Below, piece by piece: positions 342 through 64,000 of a stretch of 64,000 bases of DNA; within the stretch, counting starts at the first letter, position 1; every line of letters begins with the position of its first letter. Origin of the DNA: Squalus acanthias. Taxonomy: Eukaryota. Where the stretch lies: contig CM059431.1 of the NCBI GenBank assembly GCA_030390025.1, positions 105,278,001-105,342,000 on the forward strand, given 5' to 3'. The notes beneath the pieces were generated by a model. It had not been told where the DNA came from. It saw nothing but the letters and a program-made list of their open reading frames with translations, and did no database searches. The position numbers were made by a program, and so were the translations under genes.

Positions 342-3210
342 ATGGGAACCATTTATTTCCTTTCATCATTGACCTCAGATTCGGATGAGGAGCAGCCACG
401 GCAGCAGCAGAACCAGGCAGCTCAGCAGCAACAGCAGCAGGAGCGCCAACCTCCTGCTCACCCACCTGATGCTGCACAGGGCAGAAGGCACCAGCGCATG
501 GAAGCATGTCGCCGCAGGAGATACCCCCCTCTCAGGGTTTACAGAGGATGAGCTACCTCAACATGAGTGAGCAGCAGTGCCAGAGGAGGCTGAGACTTCC
601 GCGACAGGTTATCGGAGACATCTGCACACTGCTGCACCAACATCTGGAGCCCAGAGGAGTGGGTGGATCCCCTTACCAGTGGCTGTCAAAGTCACCACCG
701 CACTCAACTTTTTTGCCTCAGGCTCCTTCCAGGGATCATCAGCAGACATCAGCGGCATCTCCCAGTCGGCCGCCCACAGTTGCATCATGTAAGGGATTTT
801 GTCGTGCTTGTATCACAGACGGTGCTGGTGCGAGGTTAGGCCTTCGTTGCCTAATACTATTGCTTGCTCTGGTCTCCGGCCAGCCTTGTTGCAATAAGCA
901 CCTGTGAGTGGTTCGACCCAGTCGCCCTTACGGTTCTAACACTGGACTTAGGTGCGAGAGCAGTAATGCAGAGAAAAACTCAAATAGACTCGGTTGAATA
1001 GTACGAAATGGAAATCTTTATTGCATAGCGTCCAAAATCATGAAGTACATGTCATAGGCGCAAATTAACGAGAGTACAAGTATACATACATTCATAAAGC
1101 TTGGTCTATGGTAATGAAGAATGCACGGCACATCGTAAAAAGGGGAACACATTATACTTTATCCTTAATAAAACCACCCTCCCCGATCAATACCTACACT
1201 ACATCTAGATTTGTAGGATCGGGAAACATGCTCACCACTCGTGATACTTCGGAGAATTTTAAAGTGAGGCACTCGGCTCGTTCGCTGCAGCGCCTGACTG
1301 TCACGTGTTTGGAGGGGTCTCTGTACCCCACTTGTTTATCTTTGCTGCTGCGACAAGCAGGCCCGACTCCCCGTTGTCATGAAGAACTCGACAGAACTCG
1401 GGCACGGTTGTAGAACTCAAAGAAAAGTCTTCCTTTACCGACACCAGTTGTCGGTAGAATTCAATGAAGAGTCTTCCTGTTGTGATGAAGAAAACGATGG
1501 ACCCAAACCGGTTCATGCAATAACCCATAGAATTCAAGAAATGAGTTCGATATTTTCGGGCGCGGTCGGGGTTTACTGACCGTGGCGGCACGTGGATTCT
1601 TCTTTTCTTGTCATTTCGTCTTGTCTTTTGGGCCTTTGGGTCCAGACACCATTTACCGACTCTCGGGATGGTGCACCCGGTCACTTGCCCTTGTCGAGGC
1701 GGCTCGTTCCGATTGAGCTCCACCCAACATTCGAAGTCGAATCAAAAGTACAGCAGTCAGCAGCGAGATAAGAGAATAAGAGACGATTCGAGCGAATAAG
1801 AGCCGAAAATCAAGAGACCGATGGTTATAGTGCTGTGTTCCCTTATCTCCCACCCAAATCTTAATGTTTTTCCTTTGTATAATATTGGCACTCAAACCTC
1901 CCAGCATGGGGCGATTCTTTCCTTAACGGGTTTCAGTAGCACCTGAAACTGGCCAACTACCCGTTAATGTTTTCCCAATTGTTGATCCAGCCAGGATTGT
2001 CTCCCTGACTGGTTTTGGGGGCCCCCGAATACTCGTTTAATCACCCGTCGATGTCTCTCTCATTGTAGAACCGTGGGGGTATTTGTGTATTGATGTGTCT
2101 GGATGGGCCTTCGATTACCCAGTACAATGAACCTTACTTGTGCATGGAAAACGATTCCAGCACTTATATCTTTTGCTATTGTCACAAATGCAAACAGGTT
2201 GCATCCTGTCTTTATCAGTGTTTATCGAGTATGATCCAGTCTTATATTGAAATGTTTATTCAAACGCCATCTTGTCTGCCCACTGTACTTCTGGAAGCTT
2301 CTGCCACGATGCGCGGTGGCCATTTTACAGGCTTCTGTGTCCTTTATATCATGACAGCATTTCGTTTAATAAAACTGATCAAATGAATCTGCTTCTCTTT
2401 CGTTATTTTGAATTGCGATAATTGCGAAACTTTACAATCATGCAGGTTACCGATGCCCTTTTCGCAAAGGCGCACAATTATATCCACTTCTCAAGGGATC
2501 AAGAAAGTATTACCACGCGTTCAGTTGGCTTTGCAAATATGGCAGGCTTGCCAATGGTGCAGGGCGTCATAGACTGCACACATGTGGCCCTTAGGGCACC
2601 CCATCACAACCCAGCTATCTTTGTCAACCGCAAGGGCTTCCACTCCCTCAACGTACAGCTGGTGTGTAACCACAAGAAGGAGATTTTGCATGTTTGCGGC
2701 AAGTTCTGTGGTAGCTCCCATGACTCATTCATCTTGCGGAACTCTAGTGTCCCTCCGCTCTTCAATCCTCCAAACCAACTTAATGGATGGCTCCTTGGTG
2801 CCAAGGGCTACCCCCTGAAGAAGTGGCTAATGACGCCGATCAGGAGGCCAGCTAACGATGCTGAGGAGCGCTATAGCGCCAGCCACATTTCGACCAGGTC
2901 CATCATCGAGCAAACCATTGGCTTGCTGAAGATGCGATTCTGATGCCTTGACAGATCAGGTGGAGCCCTGCAGTATTCAGCAGCCAGGGTCTCCAGAATA
3001 GTCGTGGTCTGCTGTGCACTGCACAACATGGCACAGCGTCATAGCTTGCAGCTTCCTGATGAGCAAGTGGCTCAGTACATAGCCTCCTCAGATGAGGAGG
3101 AGGAGGAGGAGGAGCGAGCGGCGGCGTATCGACCAGCAGCAGCGGCAGCATGCGAGCACATGGCTGCCCGTGATGCAAGGGATGCACTCATCCTGGCCAG
3201 ATTTGCATAG
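342..3210 (+). pseudogene. Harbinger DDE transposase (HARBI1-like), disrupted
   Basis: Motifs [45 protein letters not shown] (D of GDxGY replaced by A), [18 protein letters not shown]. Frameshifts near 550 and 670, stop at 2941-2943, LTR insertion 788-2436; removing the LTR and one ATCA restores ...[11 protein letters not shown]... in frame. Confidence 0.9.
788..2436 (-). mobile_element. Solo LTR (1649 bp), ERV-like family 1
   Basis: TGTAA...TTACA termini; 4-bp TSD ATCA (784-787 / 2437-2440); homologous along its length to 16697-18336 and 61254-62929; AATAAA on - at 1017-1022. Confidence 0.92.
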
Positions 3211-16647: not shown

Positions 16648-18615
16648 GCTTCTTTGGCAGCACCTCCCAAACCCGCGACCTCTACCACCTAGAAGCTGTA
16701 AGGGGTTACGGTTCGGGGTGCTTGTGCGGGGTTAGGCCTTCGTTGCCTAATACTATTGCTTGCTCTGGTCTCCGGCCAGCCTTGTTGCAATAAGCACCTG
16801 TGAGTGGTTCGACCCACTCGCCCTTATGGTTCTAACACTGGACTTAGGTGCGAGAGCAGTAATGCAGAGAAAAACTCAAATAGACCCGGTTGAATAGTAC
16901 GAAATGGAAGTCTTTATTGCATAGCGTCCAAAATCATGAAGTACATGTCATAGGCACAAATTAATGACAGTACAAGTATACATACATTCATAAAACTTGG
17001 TCTAGGGTAATGAGGAACGCACGGCACATCGTAAAAAGGGGAACACATTATATTTATCCTTAATAAAATCTACCCTCCCCTATCAATACCTACACTAATC
17101 TAGATTTGTAGGATCGAGGAAACATGCTCACCACTCGTGATACTTCGGAGAATTTTAAAGTAAGGCACTCGGCTTGTTTTGCTGCAACACTTGACTGTCA
17201 CGTGTTGGAAGGGGTCTCTGTACCCCACTTGTTTATCTTCTCTGCTCCGGCTAGCAGGCTGGGCTCCCCGTTGTCATGAAGAACTCGACAGTGCTCGGGC
17301 CCGGCTGTAGAACTCAAAGAAAAGTCTTTCTGGACTGACACCAGTTAGCCGGTAGAATTCAAAGAAGAGTCTTCCTGTATTGACACCGGTTGTCGATAGA
17401 ATTCAAACAAGAGTCTTTGACTGGTTCGGCAGCAACCTGATAGAGTTAAAAAATGGTCTTTATATTTACGGGCGCGGTCGGGGTTTACTGACCGCGGCGG
17501 CACGTGGATTCTTCTTCTTCTCTTCTCATCTCGTCTCGTCGGGCCTTCGGGTCCAGAACACCATTTACCGACCCTCGGGATGGTGCACCCGGTCACTGGC
17601 CTCCGTCGAGGTGACTCGTTCCAAAGTTCAAACGAATCAGCCCCGGGAGGATCAGAGGAATAAGAGCGTTCAGCAGCCAGCAGCAAGATAAGAGTCAAGA
17701 GTCAAGAGAGCGATGGACATTTGTTCACTATAGTTATAGTGCTGTGTTTTCCTTATCTCCCGCCCAATCTTAATGTTCATCCTTTGTAAAATCTTGGCAC
17801 TCAAAATTCCCAGTATGGGGTGATTCTTGTTTGTAATGGGTTTCGGTAGCACCTTAAACTGGCCAACTACCCGTTAATGTTTTTCCCATTGTCGAACCGG
17901 CTAGGAGCCTCCCTGGCGGGGTTTTGGGGGCCTCCGAATACTTGTGTAAGTACCCGAGAATGGCTCTCTCATTGTAGAGCCGTGGGGAATTTGCGTATTG
18001 ATGTATCTGGATGGGCCTTCGATCGCCCATTACAATGGTCCTTACTTGTGCATGGAAAATGATTCCAGCACTTATATCTTTGCTATTGTGTCGAATGCAG
18101 ACAGGTTGCATCCTGTCTTTATCAGTGTTTGCTGCGTATTAACCAATCTTATACTGAAATGTTTATTCGAACGCCATCTTGTCTGCCCACTGAAAATTCT
18201 GGAAGCTTGTGCCACGTGGCCATTTTACAGGCTTCTGTGTCCTGTTTAATCATGACAGCATTTCGTTGAAATAAAACTGATGAAACTAATCTGCTTTATC
18301 TCGTTATTTCGAATCGCGATAATTGCGAATTTTACAAAGGACAAGGGCAGCAGGCGCATGGGAACACCACCTCCTCCAAGTTCCCCTATAAGTCACACAC
18401 CATCAGACTTAGAAGTATACCGCCGATCCTTCATCGTTGCTGGGTCAAAATCTTGGAACTCCCTCCCTAACAGCACTGTGGGAGTACCTTCACCACACGG
18501 ACTGCAGCAGTTCAAGAAGACAGCTCACCACCACCTTCTCAAGGGCAATTAGGGATGGGCAATAAATGCTGGTCTTGCCAGTGACGCCCACATCCCAGGA
18601 ATGAATTTTTTAAAA
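16648..18615 (+). mobile_element. LINE-B 3' fragment split by a solo LTR
   Basis: ...CCACCTAGAAG | GACAAGGGCAGCAGG... is contiguous in other copies (e.g. 9737-9761). Confidence 0.85.
16697..18336 (-). mobile_element. Solo LTR (1640 bp), ERV-like family 1
   Basis: TGTAA...TTACA termini; 4-bp TSD AAGC/AAGG (one mismatch); AATAAA on - at 16913-16918; close homolog of 788-2436. Confidence 0.92.
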
Positions 18616-31950: not shown

Positions 31951-32344
31951 GTATCTGGTCATTATCTCATTGTTGTTTGTGGGAGCTTGCTGTGCGCAAT
32001 TGGCTGCCACATTTCCTACATTCCAACAGTGACAACATTTCAAAAGTACTTCATTGGCTGTAAAGCGCTATAAGATGTCCTGTGGTCATGAAAGGCGCTA
32101 TGTAAATCCAAGTCTATTTTCTTTTATAAATTATTGAAGCCTTTCAAAATCCTTTTGTCACATGTATGAAATATATATTACTGCACTGGGTCAGGTCGAA
32201 CTGGAGCATCAGGTGAAACAGTGCAGTTTTTAGGCTGACTGACTGTAAAGATCACAGGCCACGCTTGTGCTGTAAGGGTTACTTTTCTGAGTTGGGGATT
32301 CAGGTACATTGTTGGGAATGGAGCTTTACTCTTCATTTTACTTT

Positions 32345-59539: not shown

Positions 59540-61253
59540 AGAATATAAGAACATAAGAAATAGGAGCAGGAGTCGGCCATTCAGCCCTTCGAGCCTGCTC
59601 CGCCATTCAATAAGATCATGGCTGATCTTCTACCTCAACTCCACTGTCCTGCACTATCCCCATATCCCTTGATTCCCTTAATATCCAAAAATCTATCGAC
59701 CTCTGTCTTGAATATACTCAACGACTGAGCATCTACAGCTCTCTGGGGTAGAGAATTCCAAAGATTCACCACCCTCCGAGTGAAGAAATTTCTCCTCATC
59801 TCAGTCCTAAATGGCCTTCCCTTTATTCTGAGACTGTGACCCCTGGTTCTGGACTCCCCAGCCAGGGGGAAACATCCTCCCTGCATCTACCCTGTCAAGC
59901 CCTGTAAGAATTTTGTATGTCTCACTCTTCTAAACTCTAGAGAATATAGGCCTAGTCTACTCAATCTCTCCTCATAGGACAATCCCCCCATCCCAGGAAC
60001 CAGTCTGGTGAACCTTCGTTGCACTCCCTCTATGGCAAGTATATCCTTCCTTAGGTAAGGAGACCAAAACTGTACACAATACTCCAGGTGTGGTCTCACC
60101 AGGGCTCTATATAATTGCAGTAAGATGTCTTTACTCTTATACTCAAATCCTCTTGTAATAAAGGCCAACATACCATTTGCTTTCCTAATTGCTTGCTGTA
60201 CCTGCATGTTAACTTTCAGTGATTCGTGTACAAGGACACCCAGGTCCCTCTGAACACCAATATTTCCCAATCTCTCACCATTTAAAAATTACTCTGCTTT
60301 TCTATTTTTCCTACCAAAGTGGATAACTTCACATTTCTCCACATTATATTCCATTTGCCATGTTCTTGCCCACTCACTTAGCCTGTCTATATCTTCTTGA
60401 AGCCTCTTTGCATCCTCCTCACTACTTACATTCCCACCCAGCTTTGTATCATCAGCAAACTTGGATATATTACATTTGGTCCCCTCATCTAAATCATTGA
60501 TATAGATTGCGAATAGCTATGGCCCAAGCACTGATCCTTGCGGTACCCCAGTAGTTACAGACTGCCAACCCGAAAATGACCCGTTTATTCCTACTCTCTG
60601 TTTTCTGTCCGTTAACCAATCCTCAATCCATGCTAGTATATTACCCCCAATCCCATGAGCCATAATTTGGTTTAATAACCTCTTGTGTGGCACCTTATCG
60701 AATGCCTTCTGAAAATCCAAACACACCACATCCACTGGTTCCCCCTGATCTATTCTGCTAGTTACAACCTCAAAAAACTCTAACAGATTTGTCAAACACG
60801 ATTTCCCTTTATAAATCCGTGTTGACTCTGCCCAATCCTATTATTATTTTCTAAGTGCCCTGTTACCATGTCCTTAATAATAGATTCTAACATTTTCTCT
60901 ACTACTGATGTCAGGCTAACTGATCTGTAGTTCCCCATTTTCTCTCTCCCTCTTTTCTTAAATAGTGGGGCTACATTTGCTACCTTCCAATCCGCGGGAA
61001 ACATTCTAGAATCTATGGAATTTTGGAAGATGACAACATCATAAGCCTCTTCTTTTGATCTAATACTATCTTTAACTTCTCTTGTTAGCCACGGTTGGAC
61101 CACTTTTCCTGTGAGGTTTTTATGCCTTAAAGGAATGTGTATTTGTTGTAGATTATGTATTAATTCTTTAAATGCTAGCCATTGCTTGTCTACTGTCATA
61201 CCTTTTAATGTAGTTTCCCAATCTATCTTAGCCAACTCGCCCCTCATACCTAC
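59540..61253 (-). mobile_element. CR1 LINE with internal deletion, interrupted at 61253 by the ERV
   Basis: MRGELAKIDW..., [47 protein letters not shown] tail. Confidence 0.93.
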
Positions 61254-62929
61254 TGTAAGGGTTTGCGAGCGTGTCTCTCAGCCCGTGAGATTCGTGTGGC
61301 TCTGTGCAGCCTGTATGTCAGTGCGGGTTTAGGCCTTGTTGCCTGTTCTGGTCTCCAGCCAGTCTGGGAACACTAGACACACCTGTGAGTGGTTCGAATC
61401 ACTCGCCCTTACGGTTCTAGACACTGGACTTAGATGCGAGAGCAGTAATGGAGATGAAACTCATGTAGACTCGGTTGAATGGTACGAAATGGAAAATCTT
61501 TATTGCATAATGTTTAAGATTACGAAATACATGTCATAAGCACAGATTAATGACAGTACAATCTGACACGCAGTTATGTAACTAATTCTAGGGAAACGAG
61601 GAACGAACGACACACCGTAAATGGGGGCACACATTACAATTATCCTTAGTACTTAAACCCTCCCCTATCAATATCTGTCCTAGCTAGATTCGTAGGATTC
61701 GAGACTCATGCTCACCACTCGTGATAACTCGGAGAAATTCCGAATAGCTGATCGGATGTTTTCACCGCAGCACCCACGTGTCGATCAGGGGGTCTCCTGG
61801 CCCCACTTGTTTACTTGCTTCTGCTCCGGCTAGCAGGCTGGAACGTCTGTTGTTATGAAGATCTGTGTTTGTGGGTTTCACGTACCAGTCAACACTTAAG
61901 AGAATAATCTCTCGGTGTTCGTCATGAGGATCTGCCCTGATGGGTTTCACAGACCAGTCAATACCTCAAAGAAGAATCTTCCGGGGTCCGTTCTTTAAAG
62001 TTCAAAGAAGTCTTCCTGGCAAGGAAAAATGTCTATTCGACCTACAGGCGCGGTCGGGGCTTACTGACCGTGGCGATAAGTATGGTCTTCGTCTCTTCTC
62101 ATCTCATCTCATCTCTTCTCGGGCCTTTGGTTCCGATGCCGGTTACCAACACAGGTCTTCGTGACACGACACGAGGTAGATCCGAACGGATCACAAAGTT
62201 CAACAGTCTTTTAAAAAAAGACACCAGGCAAACAGGAACAAGACGGCGAGTCAAGAACACAGGAGCAGCCACGAGGATGAACACCAGCAAGATAAGAGAA
62301 AGATGGACGGCTGGAGCCTGCAATTATAGTACAAAATCTTCCGTTTCCCGCCCAACCTCAATGTCCCTTCCTTTTGTTAGGGTTTGGCGCTCAAATGTCT
62401 TGTATAGGTGATCTCCGGTTTTAATGGGTTTCGGGGCTACTCGTAAATGTCTGAGTACCTGTTAATATTTCTCCCATTGTTTAATCGGTCGGTATTCTCC
62501 CTGGAGGGGTTTTGGGGCCTCCAAGTGTTTTCTGTAACTACCCGCTAACGGCTCTCTCATCGTAGAGTCGTTGGGATTTTACATATTAATGTCTTTGGAT
62601 GGGTTCTTGATTACTGGGTACAATAGCCTTTATTCGTACCTGGGAGACCGATTCCAGTATCTATGTGTATACTGCAAACCCAAGATGTCTCGTGTATTAT
62701 CTTCGATGTGCTGAATCTTAATCGATCTTGCACAAATGTTTATTGGAACGCCATCTTGTCTGCCTGTCGAAAAGTCTAGAATGTTCCGCCACGAGGTGCG
62801 GCGGCCATTTTACAAGCTGCTTGTGTCCACTTTGAAACCTGACAGCATTCTGCTGAAATAAAAGCTGTTTGAACGAAACTATGTGTTTTCTCCTTATTAA
62901 TAAAATCACGATATATTGCGAATTCTACA
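61254..62929 (-). mobile_element. 3' LTR (1676 bp) of an ERV-like provirus, family 1 (diverged subfamily)
   Basis: TGTA...TACA termini; colinear with both solo LTRs; AATAAA on - at 61499-61504; preceded on - by PPT and env. Confidence 0.9.
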
Positions 62930-62940
62930 GTCCCTCCTGT
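62930..62940 (-). promoter_or_regulatory. Polypurine tract (short)
   Basis: Minus strand ACAGGAGGGAC immediately before the LTR start TGTAG. Confidence 0.7.
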
Positions 62941-63376
62941 TGATGCGAATAACTCCGCTTATCGTATCAAAAATATTGTGGTGAGCAATATTATCTCGAT
63001 TTTCTCCGAATCCAGAAAATTAATCCCATAACTTAAACTAGCTAGGGTCTTTGTGTCATCCTTATTTCCCAAGAAAATTACATTTTATAGCACCGTAGGC
63101 ATTATTTGCCTTTAAACTTACACCACTTGTTTTCCTTCCAGGCGTAACCAGGCCGATGCCTCTCGTATCACCTGTATATTCATCTTTTATTCAGGGAAAG
63201 GAAAAACAAAACCCAAAACCAAACAATCATTTTTAACTACAACACCATTACCAAAATAATCAACACCAACTCTTAAAACATGTCAAGTTCCAAACGTATT
63301 TACAGTCTTTGAAAATCATGATCGAGTACAAACTTTCGCGGCGCACGTGGCGAGCGGGAGTGACGGCATTTTCCGA

Positions 63377-64000
63377 TCACACGGTGCTTTCATCGTGCAC
63401 GCGCACATAACGTTCTCGCCACTCTCCCGTGTTTTCATGCTTGGTGAGGCGTTTGTCTCTTTTACAATGTACGACCAATAGGTATACTACAATAAAAACT
63501 TGGCATACTACTAAAATGTGGGAGGCTATCCTGATCCATGAAGGTACTTCAATGTTGGTGAACAGATTCCACCACGGTGGAATTACTATATCCAGAATGT
63601 CTGTCCCTCTTTCGACAGTTTTCTGCTCTAATGTGTAAAAATGTTTCTGTGACACCGCGACGGCTTTTAAAAGCTTGGTGAGGTGTTCAGGGAGAGGGGG
63701 AATGAGGTATCCGAAATGCGCGACGAATCGCTGCAAGTCGGTGAAATTCTCTTTTACGGTGAGATGAACCGTGGATGGTTCAGGGATTGGGACAATTCGC
63801 TGTTGTGCTACTTGAACTTCCGCCCGGGGTTTGAAACAGAAACTGCTGTCACTCACCGGACACCGGCTACGGTTTCCATGCTGGTAGTGTCGCGCTGCAG
63901 TGGTAACACAATATGTTCCACCCCCGATGTATGCTACCTGCGGAGGCACATGATCTTGTGCCATTGCCTCCATGGTGCAATTCATGGACTTGGCGCCAGC
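63377..64000 (-). CDS. env: Envelope glycoprotein C-terminal (TM subunit-like) part of ERV-like element; ORF open off the window edge
   Basis: 207 uninterrupted codons directly upstream of PPT/LTR; Cys-containing ectodomain with NCT/NRS/NFT sequons, heptad-like helix LTKLLKAVAVSQKHFYTLEQKTVE, Trp-rich PPWWNLF..PSW, hydrophobic span IASHILVVCQVFIVVYLLVV, basic KRDKR. Confidence 0.8.
   Translation of the reverse strand, partial: AGAKSMNCTMEAMAQDHVPPQVAYIGGGTYCVTTAARHYQHGNRSRCPVSDSSFCFKPRAEVQVAQQRIVPIPEPSTVHLTVKENFTDLQRFVAHFGYLIPPLPEHLTKLLKAVAVSQKHFYTLEQKTVERGTDILDIVIPPWWNLFTNIEVPSWIRIASHILVVCQVFIVVYLLVVHCKRDKRLTKHENTGEWRERYVRVHDESTV

Follow-up and report, generated by a model that had tools for sequence, protein, structure and literature searches.

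What kind of retrovirus left the envelope-like reading frame and the long terminal repeat (LTR) found at the right edge of a stretch of the Squalus acanthias genome? The stretch, called the window below, comprises 64,000 nucleotides (assembly GCA_030390025.1, CM059431.1, positions 105,278,001 to 105,342,000 of the forward strand) and lies on a contig, our C7, of a 3.7-Gb genome. The initial annotation, made from the letters of the window, had proposed a divergent lineage related to spumaviruses or lokiretroviruses, or else an env-bearing Gypsy element. Having followed the element to its other end, we think it likely that it is a recently integrated, defective copy of a cartilaginous-fish retrovirus, simple and deep-branching, of class III grade and with the layout of snakehead retrovirus (SnRV), and that its family was amplified by reinfection. 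We class it as an endogenous retrovirus (ERV) of class III and of SnRV type, its exact branch uncertain, and as neither one of the Spumaretrovirinae nor a lokiretrovirus. The earlier proposal held insofar as this is a retrovirus with a non-gamma Env, apparently homologous in its predicted fold to the foamy transmembrane subunit (TM) and to viral F proteins; the foamy, loki, and Gypsy affiliations did not hold.

The window contains the 3′ end of the element (Table 1), and the parts first noticed there have very nearly the sizes given for them: the LTR of about 1.7 kb, TGT...ACA, measures 1,676 bp, the spacer of about 440 bp measures 447 bp, and the short polypurine tract (PPT) reads AGGAGGG, followed by AC and then TG. 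This junction is identical in 10 of 10 other copies. The env-like frame is indeed open within the window, through 207 codons up to the edge at position 64000, but the provirus extends about 10 kb farther, and upstream of the window env in this copy is split between overlapping frames, one of 423 codons and one of 489. As a whole, the provirus is 12,755 bp long, in the order LTR, primer-binding site (PBS), gag, pol, env, PPT, and LTR, and its 5′ and 3′ LTRs differ by 5 mismatches in 1,676 bp (99.7% identical). The far LTR had been predicted to end in TACA, with CTAC and the interrupted CR1 repeat beyond it; it ends in CTACA, CTAC follows, and CR1 continues. The flanks of the provirus match neighbouring parts of another CR1 copy, 4539-4351 and 4344-4159. 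Because pol and env each carry one frameshift, this copy is defective.

Gag, pol, and env between LTRs, with a Pol that runs from protease (PR) through reverse transcriptase (RT), tether, and RNase H to integrase (IN), place the element inside the canonical Retroviridae. It combines an arginine-type PBS with a 4-bp target-site duplication (TSD), a single CCHC knuckle, and a double RNase H. The N-terminal part of Gag looks helical, and its knuckle has the form CX2CX4HX4C; RT has the motif YVDD, and the tether is followed by a second RNase H. Past the SH3-like domain of IN, Pol has a low-complexity tail of about 270 amino acids rich in Pro, Glu, and Ala (approximately L013:5027-5850), longer than that of SnRV. 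In the DNA sequence of this copy and of 9 of 10 others, gag and pol share one frame interrupted by UGA-CUAG, a leaky-stop context; one copy aligned poorly over this junction. No stimulatory RNA structure was found in the 120 nt 3′ of the stop with a model that leaves out pseudoknots (−30.9 kcal/mol, versus −36.2 ± 3.6 for shuffled sequences).

The 18-nt PBS begins five bases past the 5′ LTR and matches, at 18 of 18 positions, a host tRNA-Arg(TCG) gene called by ARAGORN with CCA added. A 17-mer of the primer motif has 561 matches genome-wide; two clustered matches that were tested were called tRNA genes, and seven scattered ones were not. The tRNA-Arg(TCG) genes, 92 nt long and apparently intron-containing, stand in long tandem arrays with a period of 1,623 bp at about 39.0-40.9 Mb of another contig, C26 (L021, L022). 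The first AUG of gag (L014:3326-3328), in strong Kozak context, overlaps the PBS, its A being the final base of the 5-nt spacer and its TG the start of the PBS, and it is kept in 8 of 9 other copies; the second Met lies 24 codons downstream. Use of this AUG would leave nearly no leader between U5 and gag.

Env was studied in the natural open frame of another copy, which runs for 783 amino acids from the signal-peptide Met, with RQRR at residue 327 and a membrane span at about 734-752. Neither the immunosuppressive domain (ISD) nor the CX6CC motif occurs in this full frame, which bears out what had been said of the window portion. The modelled core is a class Ib fusion fold, as in the F proteins of paramyxoviruses and pneumoviruses and in foamy Env. 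The model has a mean predicted local distance difference test score (pLDDT) of 57, mostly 70-90 in the core, and it matches F of human parainfluenza virus 3 with a Foldseek E value of 1.9e-11. VIA Z scores are 10.2-11.5 for nine paramyxovirus and pneumovirus F chains (for respiratory syncytial virus F, Z 10.7, root mean square deviation [rmsd] 5.9, 288 residues aligned) and 7.8 for foamy Env 8RM0 (rmsd 5.4, 274 aligned). A sequence profile of 36 family members, tested against 164 retroviral open reading frames (ORFs) and 162 shuffled controls, points the same way: foamy and SnRV ORFs fill the top 22 of 164 places, with a best E value of 2.7e-7 for foamy Env TM, at least 0.37 for gamma and delta ORFs, and 0.055 for the best shuffled sequence. 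For SnRV Env the E value is 0.0046, with shuffled foamy-Env controls reaching 0.055. One of the two foamy likenesses noticed by eye, C..A.....QV....G.Y.V, lies inside the profile-aligned stretch; the other, L.LPHL.GI, lies beyond it and was not borne out by the alignment. Searches of Pfam and PDB with the 207-residue piece from the window gave nothing significant, nor did comparison of the family profile with PDB sequences. Weak matches to Pfam Fusion_gly occurred in 3 of the 36 members (best E 0.026), and the ESM Atlas offered one chordate cluster at 0.83, a lead only.

The N-terminal part of Env is arranged differently from that of foamy viruses. The match to F begins at residue 238-245, about 230 residues precede the F2-like strand, and the modelled helices end at residues 306-316, just ahead of RQRR. 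The extra residues are N-terminal, and there would be no space for a foamy-type receptor-binding domain (RBD) ahead of the furin site. Folded alone, this head matched almost exclusively immunoglobulin (Ig)-fold chains or complexes among the matches listed (best Z 7.8, rmsd 3.3, 97 aligned), and a bamboo-shark homologue is labelled "Ig-like domain-containing" in UniRef. An Ig-like domain at the N terminus of Env is probable on the model. Among named Env homologues, those of sawshark, skate, and catshark are the closest; homologues are also present in Pelodytes and Xenopus tropicalis. By sequence, SnRV Env (L024:6131-9535) has an Ig-like motif near its N terminus (V-set, E 0.12) and an apparent F2/F1-like core. 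Three host-like proteins (P0003, P0011, and P0151: cadherin-related 5-like, Niban 1-like, and one F-box-like by eye) contain in-frame Env pieces; these probably reflect faulty gene models or pieces of ERVs that were exonised.

Among predicted viral structures, the Env model matches lispivirus glycoproteins, baculovirus F, and the Env proteins of two epsilonretroviruses, walleye epidermal hyperplasia virus 1 (WEHV-1) and walleye dermal sarcoma virus (WDSV). The last two stand at ranks 9 and 24 in BFVD (E 4.8e-11 and 2.2e-8), which suggests that these fish retroviruses also have an F-like Env. Given such matches, the class Ib fold seems widespread in basal retroviruses.

For placement of Pol, RT trees were built in which the query stood with 62, 34, and 38 other rows, picked out of about 160, with references anchored by a published RT alignment and virus records; lokiretroviruses were represented by two anchors and foamy viruses by tetrapod references. 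The element lies within the canonical retroviruses and apart from loki in all three, with support of 97/98* (RT alone), 99/98* (RT plus tether), and 100/98* (mixture model LG+C20), and each time outside the foamy clade. The best relatives of its RT are a 90%-identical protein and then frog and coelacanth ERVs and one further protein, about 50% identical; its own PR-RT, searched against viral contigs, found no relative. In approximately unbiased (AU) tests on RT plus tether, a grouping with SnRV was not rejected (p=0.21), whereas groupings with foamy viruses (p=0.035, weakly), loki (p=0.0075), class I (4e-6), and Gypsy (p=0.017) were. Two other Pol proteins, P0038 and P0040, are sister to the tetrapod foamy viruses in the RT-alone tree (92/88), and joining the element to this larger group was rejected as well (p=0.02). 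IN scores loki sequences at 215 and 196 bits, above foamy (136 at most) and SnRV (132), its best solved relative is the integrase of prototype foamy virus (PFV), and its tree gave no firm placement.

The layout as a whole matches that of SnRV. In both, gag and pol share one frame with a stop codon between them, Gag is a coiled-coil protein with a single CCHC, the LTR ends in TTACA, and 2 nt separate the LTR from a short PPT (AGGGGGG in SnRV). Env in both has a long N-terminal part; in SnRV, as in the element, this part seems to carry an Ig-like motif and to be followed by an F-like core. The PBS is of Arg type in SnRV too. The AC spacer and the lack of tas, already listed as points against a foamy virus, are real, and the spacer agrees with SnRV and not with foamy viruses. 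The two also differ: the SnRV stop is UAG rather than UGA-CUAG, the RTs are 43% identical, and the Env frame of SnRV has 1,134 codons, compared to 783 amino acids here. SnRV also has an LTR of 518 bp and a 3′ORF and accessory genes (PMC12193657), whereas the element has a 1,676-bp LTR and neither kind of gene. SnRV-related ERVs are classed as Huo or class III (PMC12193657, PMC4422223, PMC6001957) and occur in the elephant shark as CmiERV lineage I (PMC4422223); in cartilaginous fish, most RTs belong to clade III (PMC11089739).

This is a young family with many members. The env piece found 9,132 candidates in the genome (which is not a copy number), and 150 of the 150 that were scored are at least 98% identical in amino acids. 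Ten further copies were taken in list order by similarity, two on high-numbered contigs being skipped, so that the sample is biased. The nine from which both ends were recovered show, without exception, a 4-bp TSD and the termini TGTA...TTACA; the tenth gave no 5′ end. Eight of the nine show 2-11 mismatches between their LTRs; the ninth (205 mismatches, from a mis-cut or deleted 3′ LTR) was kept out of this range. The env frame has at least 845 codons in 7 of the 10. For the copy in the window, 0.3% LTR divergence corresponds to 0.7, 3.0, or 6.8 Myr at rates of 2.2e-9, 0.5e-9, or 2.2e-10 (PMC7947760, PMC10699275, PMC4422223). The description of env as "young" thus fits the near-identical LTRs. 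The alternative, a retained env, was not supported, as env is frameshifted here in one of very many near-identical copies; the same frameshift argues against a domesticated gene. The ratio of nonsynonymous to synonymous change (dN/dS) between this copy and the ten others is 0.20 in the head and 0.06 in the core of env, parts that were unused in picking the copies; with nine others, it is 0.16 in RT and 0.04 in IN, one copy having been dropped for poor cover. This points to constraint on env like that on pol, as expected from spread by reinfection, and the env values of 0.06-0.20 are our reason for proposing such spread. Contigs from four runs yielded nothing usable on splicing or transcription. 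The LTRs vary much more among copies (best alignment 86-98% identical, 1,625-1,722 bp; window LTR versus L066-L085) than does env (dS 0.04-0.05). Several families that are older and more divergent but share this type of Env also occur in the genome (L086-L099), about 25% identical to this Env and 33-81% to the bamboo-shark protein.

Several observations weigh against the SnRV-like reading. The grouping with SnRV is unstable, with 94/97 on RT alone, no firm branch on RT plus tether or with quick RT-alone trees, and, in the LG+C20 tree, a 96/95* branch that excludes it. AU tests on RT alone, with quick trees, rejected neither foamy (0.20) nor loki (0.10), and the RT trees were without named fish or shark foamy-like ERV (FLERV), Ovex1-like, or ERV4 references. 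The similarity of Env to SnRV Env is weak, and BLASTP was not significant; the low mean pLDDT of the full Env model comes with a high rmsd to its top matches. The Ig head model is poor (mean pLDDT 43, Z under 8), and Pfam Ig_3 stays below its cut-off there (E 0.07; 0.003 in a homologue). Finally, the dN/dS values are pairwise to one reference, and so non-independent, and come from copies chosen by similarity.

How else might the element be read? One can envision a basal FLERV of the shark and frog kind (CmiFLERV/XtrFLERV) that retained a zinc knuckle and readthrough later lost in tetrapod foamy viruses. Foamy viruses have a 4-bp TSD, LTRs of 1.3-1.8 kb, similar PPT letters (the AGGAG-GG type), and a class Ib Env core whose TM is detectably similar in sequence. 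The IN match to PFV and the modest AU rejection of a foamy grouping fit as well, and shark FLERVs form a cluster with one from a frog (PMC5512871), frog and coelacanth being the sources of the nearest named RTs. Still, much of the layout disagrees. The foamy PPT adjoins the LTR in 5 of 6 records (the sixth is uninformative), the PBS of the foamy records is of another type, tas and bet lie between env and the LTR where the element has no accessory ORF, and foamy Pol is synthesised separately from Gag, on a dedicated spliced RNA, whereas here the two share a frame. Foamy Gag is described as having no Cys-His box (PMC4299795), the foamy primer is tRNA-Lys or tRNA-Asn (PMC5512871) rather than tRNA-Arg(TCG), and the foamy RBD is an insert of about 330 amino acids that separates the HRC helix from the furin site of a class Ib Env (8RM0/8RM1; PMC11468914), not a module N-terminal to the F2-like strand. 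By eye, RT is unlike the ZFERV-2, AciFLERV, and AliFLERV rows, and it is P0038 and P0040, not the element, that are sister to foamy viruses. We regard this reading as quite unlikely. The likenesses that suggested it are shared more widely: a 4-bp TSD is not diagnostic because it is also typical of ERV1 (PMC4299795, Table 1), and an F-like Env is not because the Env of lokiretroviruses (PMC7947760) and the predicted Env of WEHV-1 and WDSV share it. A long LTR, a 4-bp TSD, and a foamy-like TM thus do not diagnose a foamy virus.

A separate lineage that arose before the split of SnRV, foamy viruses, and class I, just above loki, would make the SnRV likeness a matter of shared ancestral traits. 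The mixture-model tree, which puts the element outside the 96/95* clade of those three groups, and the loki-leaning IN scores favour this, as does the naming of relatives as NYNRIN-like, loki IN being near CGIN1 (PMC7947760). That tree, however, is thinly sampled (35 rows, no class II) and has long branches, the RT-only tree joins the element to SnRV, and IN settles nothing firmly; the mechanism would be identical to that of the SnRV-like retrovirus we prefer, and we consider the separate branch unlikely. That the element might be the first lokiretrovirus of a cartilaginous fish is very improbable. Lokiretroviruses share the F-like Env, the tether with dual RNase H, and a helical segment before capsid (PMC7947760), in addition to the IN scores, but in their Env sequences, as seen in the supplement to that paper, the F2-like part is short and no long head precedes it. 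RT belongs to another clade: it has LPQG..NSP where loki has CPFG..NSPAEFN, lacks the loki signature, and is 34-39% identical to the two anchors, versus about 52% to non-loki ERVs. Loki hosts are asterisked in Table S2 of the same paper, and none of the five cartilaginous-fish genomes found there is so marked. For RT the loki reading is thus largely refuted, which leaves it only a recombinant origin of IN. We give next to no weight to an env-bearing Gypsy element or to a domesticated env gene, although predicted baculovirus F-type proteins match the Env fold and the frame is open inside the window: Gypsy elements (Metaviridae) have a single RNase H where this one has a tether and a second RNase H, the AU test rejects the grouping, and the many near-identical copies and the frameshift do not suit a domesticated gene. 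Membership in class I (gamma/epsilon) was rejected by the AU test and by the absence of ISD and CX6CC. The gamma-type Env of murine leukemia virus, feline leukemia virus, and Env-Pb1 also has at its N terminus an Ig-like domain, the IgV-like RBD-C, plausibly for receptor binding (bioRxiv 10.1101/2024.03.17.585361), but the head here sits on a class Ib core without those motifs. ERV4 differs in its 5-bp TSD and in having no zinc finger (PMC4299795).

On the SnRV-like reading, we imagine that reverse transcription would be primed by tRNA-Arg(UCG) and that Gag-Pol would be made by readthrough of UGA-CUAG. Integrase may trim 2 nt (AC) off the U3 end in the orthoretrovirus manner before a 4-bp staggered cut. 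Furin would cleave Env at RQRR, giving an F2-like and an F1-like part, and Env, if the model is right, would fuse membranes in the manner of paramyxovirus F and foamy Env, with the Ig-like head as a likely receptor-binding module. The family may have multiplied mainly by Env-dependent reinfection of the germ line.

We tentatively suggest, while holding it doubtful, that the element represents a largely undescribed lineage of sharks, skates, frogs, and coelacanth, basal to SnRV, foamy viruses, and class I, which would combine orthoretrovirus-type replication (zinc knuckle, readthrough, trimmed U3 end) with a class Ib Env bearing an N-terminal Ig head, reinfected the germ line within the last few Myr, and may persist exogenously. 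If true, the F-like Env, seen also in loki, foamy viruses, SnRV, and, by prediction, WEHV and WDSV, would be the ancestral retroviral envelope, to which receptor modules were added N-terminally (as in coronavirus spike) or internally (as in foamy viruses). The authors of the lokiretrovirus study weighed four scenarios without deciding if an F-like Env was already present in the ancestor common to all retroviruses (PMC7947760), and N-terminal or internal addition of receptor modules to class Ib proteins has been described (PMC11468914). Here an element that is neither foamy nor loki has a modelled class Ib core, apparently with the N-terminal arrangement. SnRV-related ERVs in cartilaginous fish are already known; the combination of parts is new. 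In the literature covered, with most subscription journals and Repbase outside its scope, no description was found of this family or of an Ig-headed class Ib Env in SnRV-like ERVs. A recent survey of env genes in Chondrichthyes admitted only those with ISD and CX6-7C motifs (bioRxiv 10.64898/2026.05.06.723177) and would miss this Env type, which has neither. With many young natural copies under purifying selection, the structure, readthrough, and receptor binding are directly testable.

Table 1. Coordinates of the provirus and related LTRs (window positions, or locus coordinates where L013 or L014 is given)
Feature	Position	Strand	Remarks
TSD CTAC, 3′-LTR side	61250..61253	.	within a CR1 long interspersed nuclear element
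3′ LTR, 1,676 bp	61254..62929	minus	TGTA...TTACA; left flank CTAC
AATAAA in 3′ LTR	LTR position 1426		solo-LTR counterparts at 1415 and 1419
Tandem duplication in 3′ LTR, 69 bp, single	61852-61989		
PPT and 2-nt spacer	62930..62938	minus	AGGAGGG 62938-62932; AC 62931-62930; TG of LTR next
Noncoding spacer, env stop to LTR, 447 bp	62930..63376	minus	without accessory ORF
env, C-terminal 207 codons	63377..64000	minus	end of predicted class Ib core, heptad repeat B (HRB)-like helix, membrane span, short tail
Rest of env	L013 3001-4729		split over two frames; from signal peptide and probable Ig-like head through F2-like part and RQRR to F1-like part
pol	L013 5027-9519		two frames; PR-RT-tether; RNase H-IN
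gag stop, UGA-CUAG	L013 9520-9522		
gag, 602 codons	to first AUG at L014 3328		one CCHC
PBS for tRNA-Arg(TCG)	L014 3310-3327		
5′ LTR	L014 3333-5008		
Second TSD, CTAC	L014 5009-5012		
Solo LTR, sister family, 1,649 bp	788-2436	minus	TSD ATCA/ATCA
Solo LTR, same sister family, 1,640 bp	16697-18336	minus	TSD AAGC/AAGG, one mismatch

The long LTR yielded no gene. Sense ORFs of at least 75 codons are absent from the spacer and LTR of this copy, and none starting from a Met is common across the 10 others. An accessory gene in the long U3 was rejected, the sense ORFs differing among copies and mostly having no Met, and so was an antisense ORF of 156 codons (61941-62411), which ranges from absent to 212 codons in 10 copies. 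The sequence TGTAAGGG at 32271 was ruled out as an LTR of this retrovirus family. The two solo LTRs of the sister family do have the 4-bp TSDs first reported for them, one with a mismatch, and each is about 77% identical to the 3′ LTR over aligned columns. The one at 788 splits a frame (window 500-787 and 2437-2800) that we take, by eye, to be a Harbinger-type transposase, and the one at 16697 splits a common repeat.

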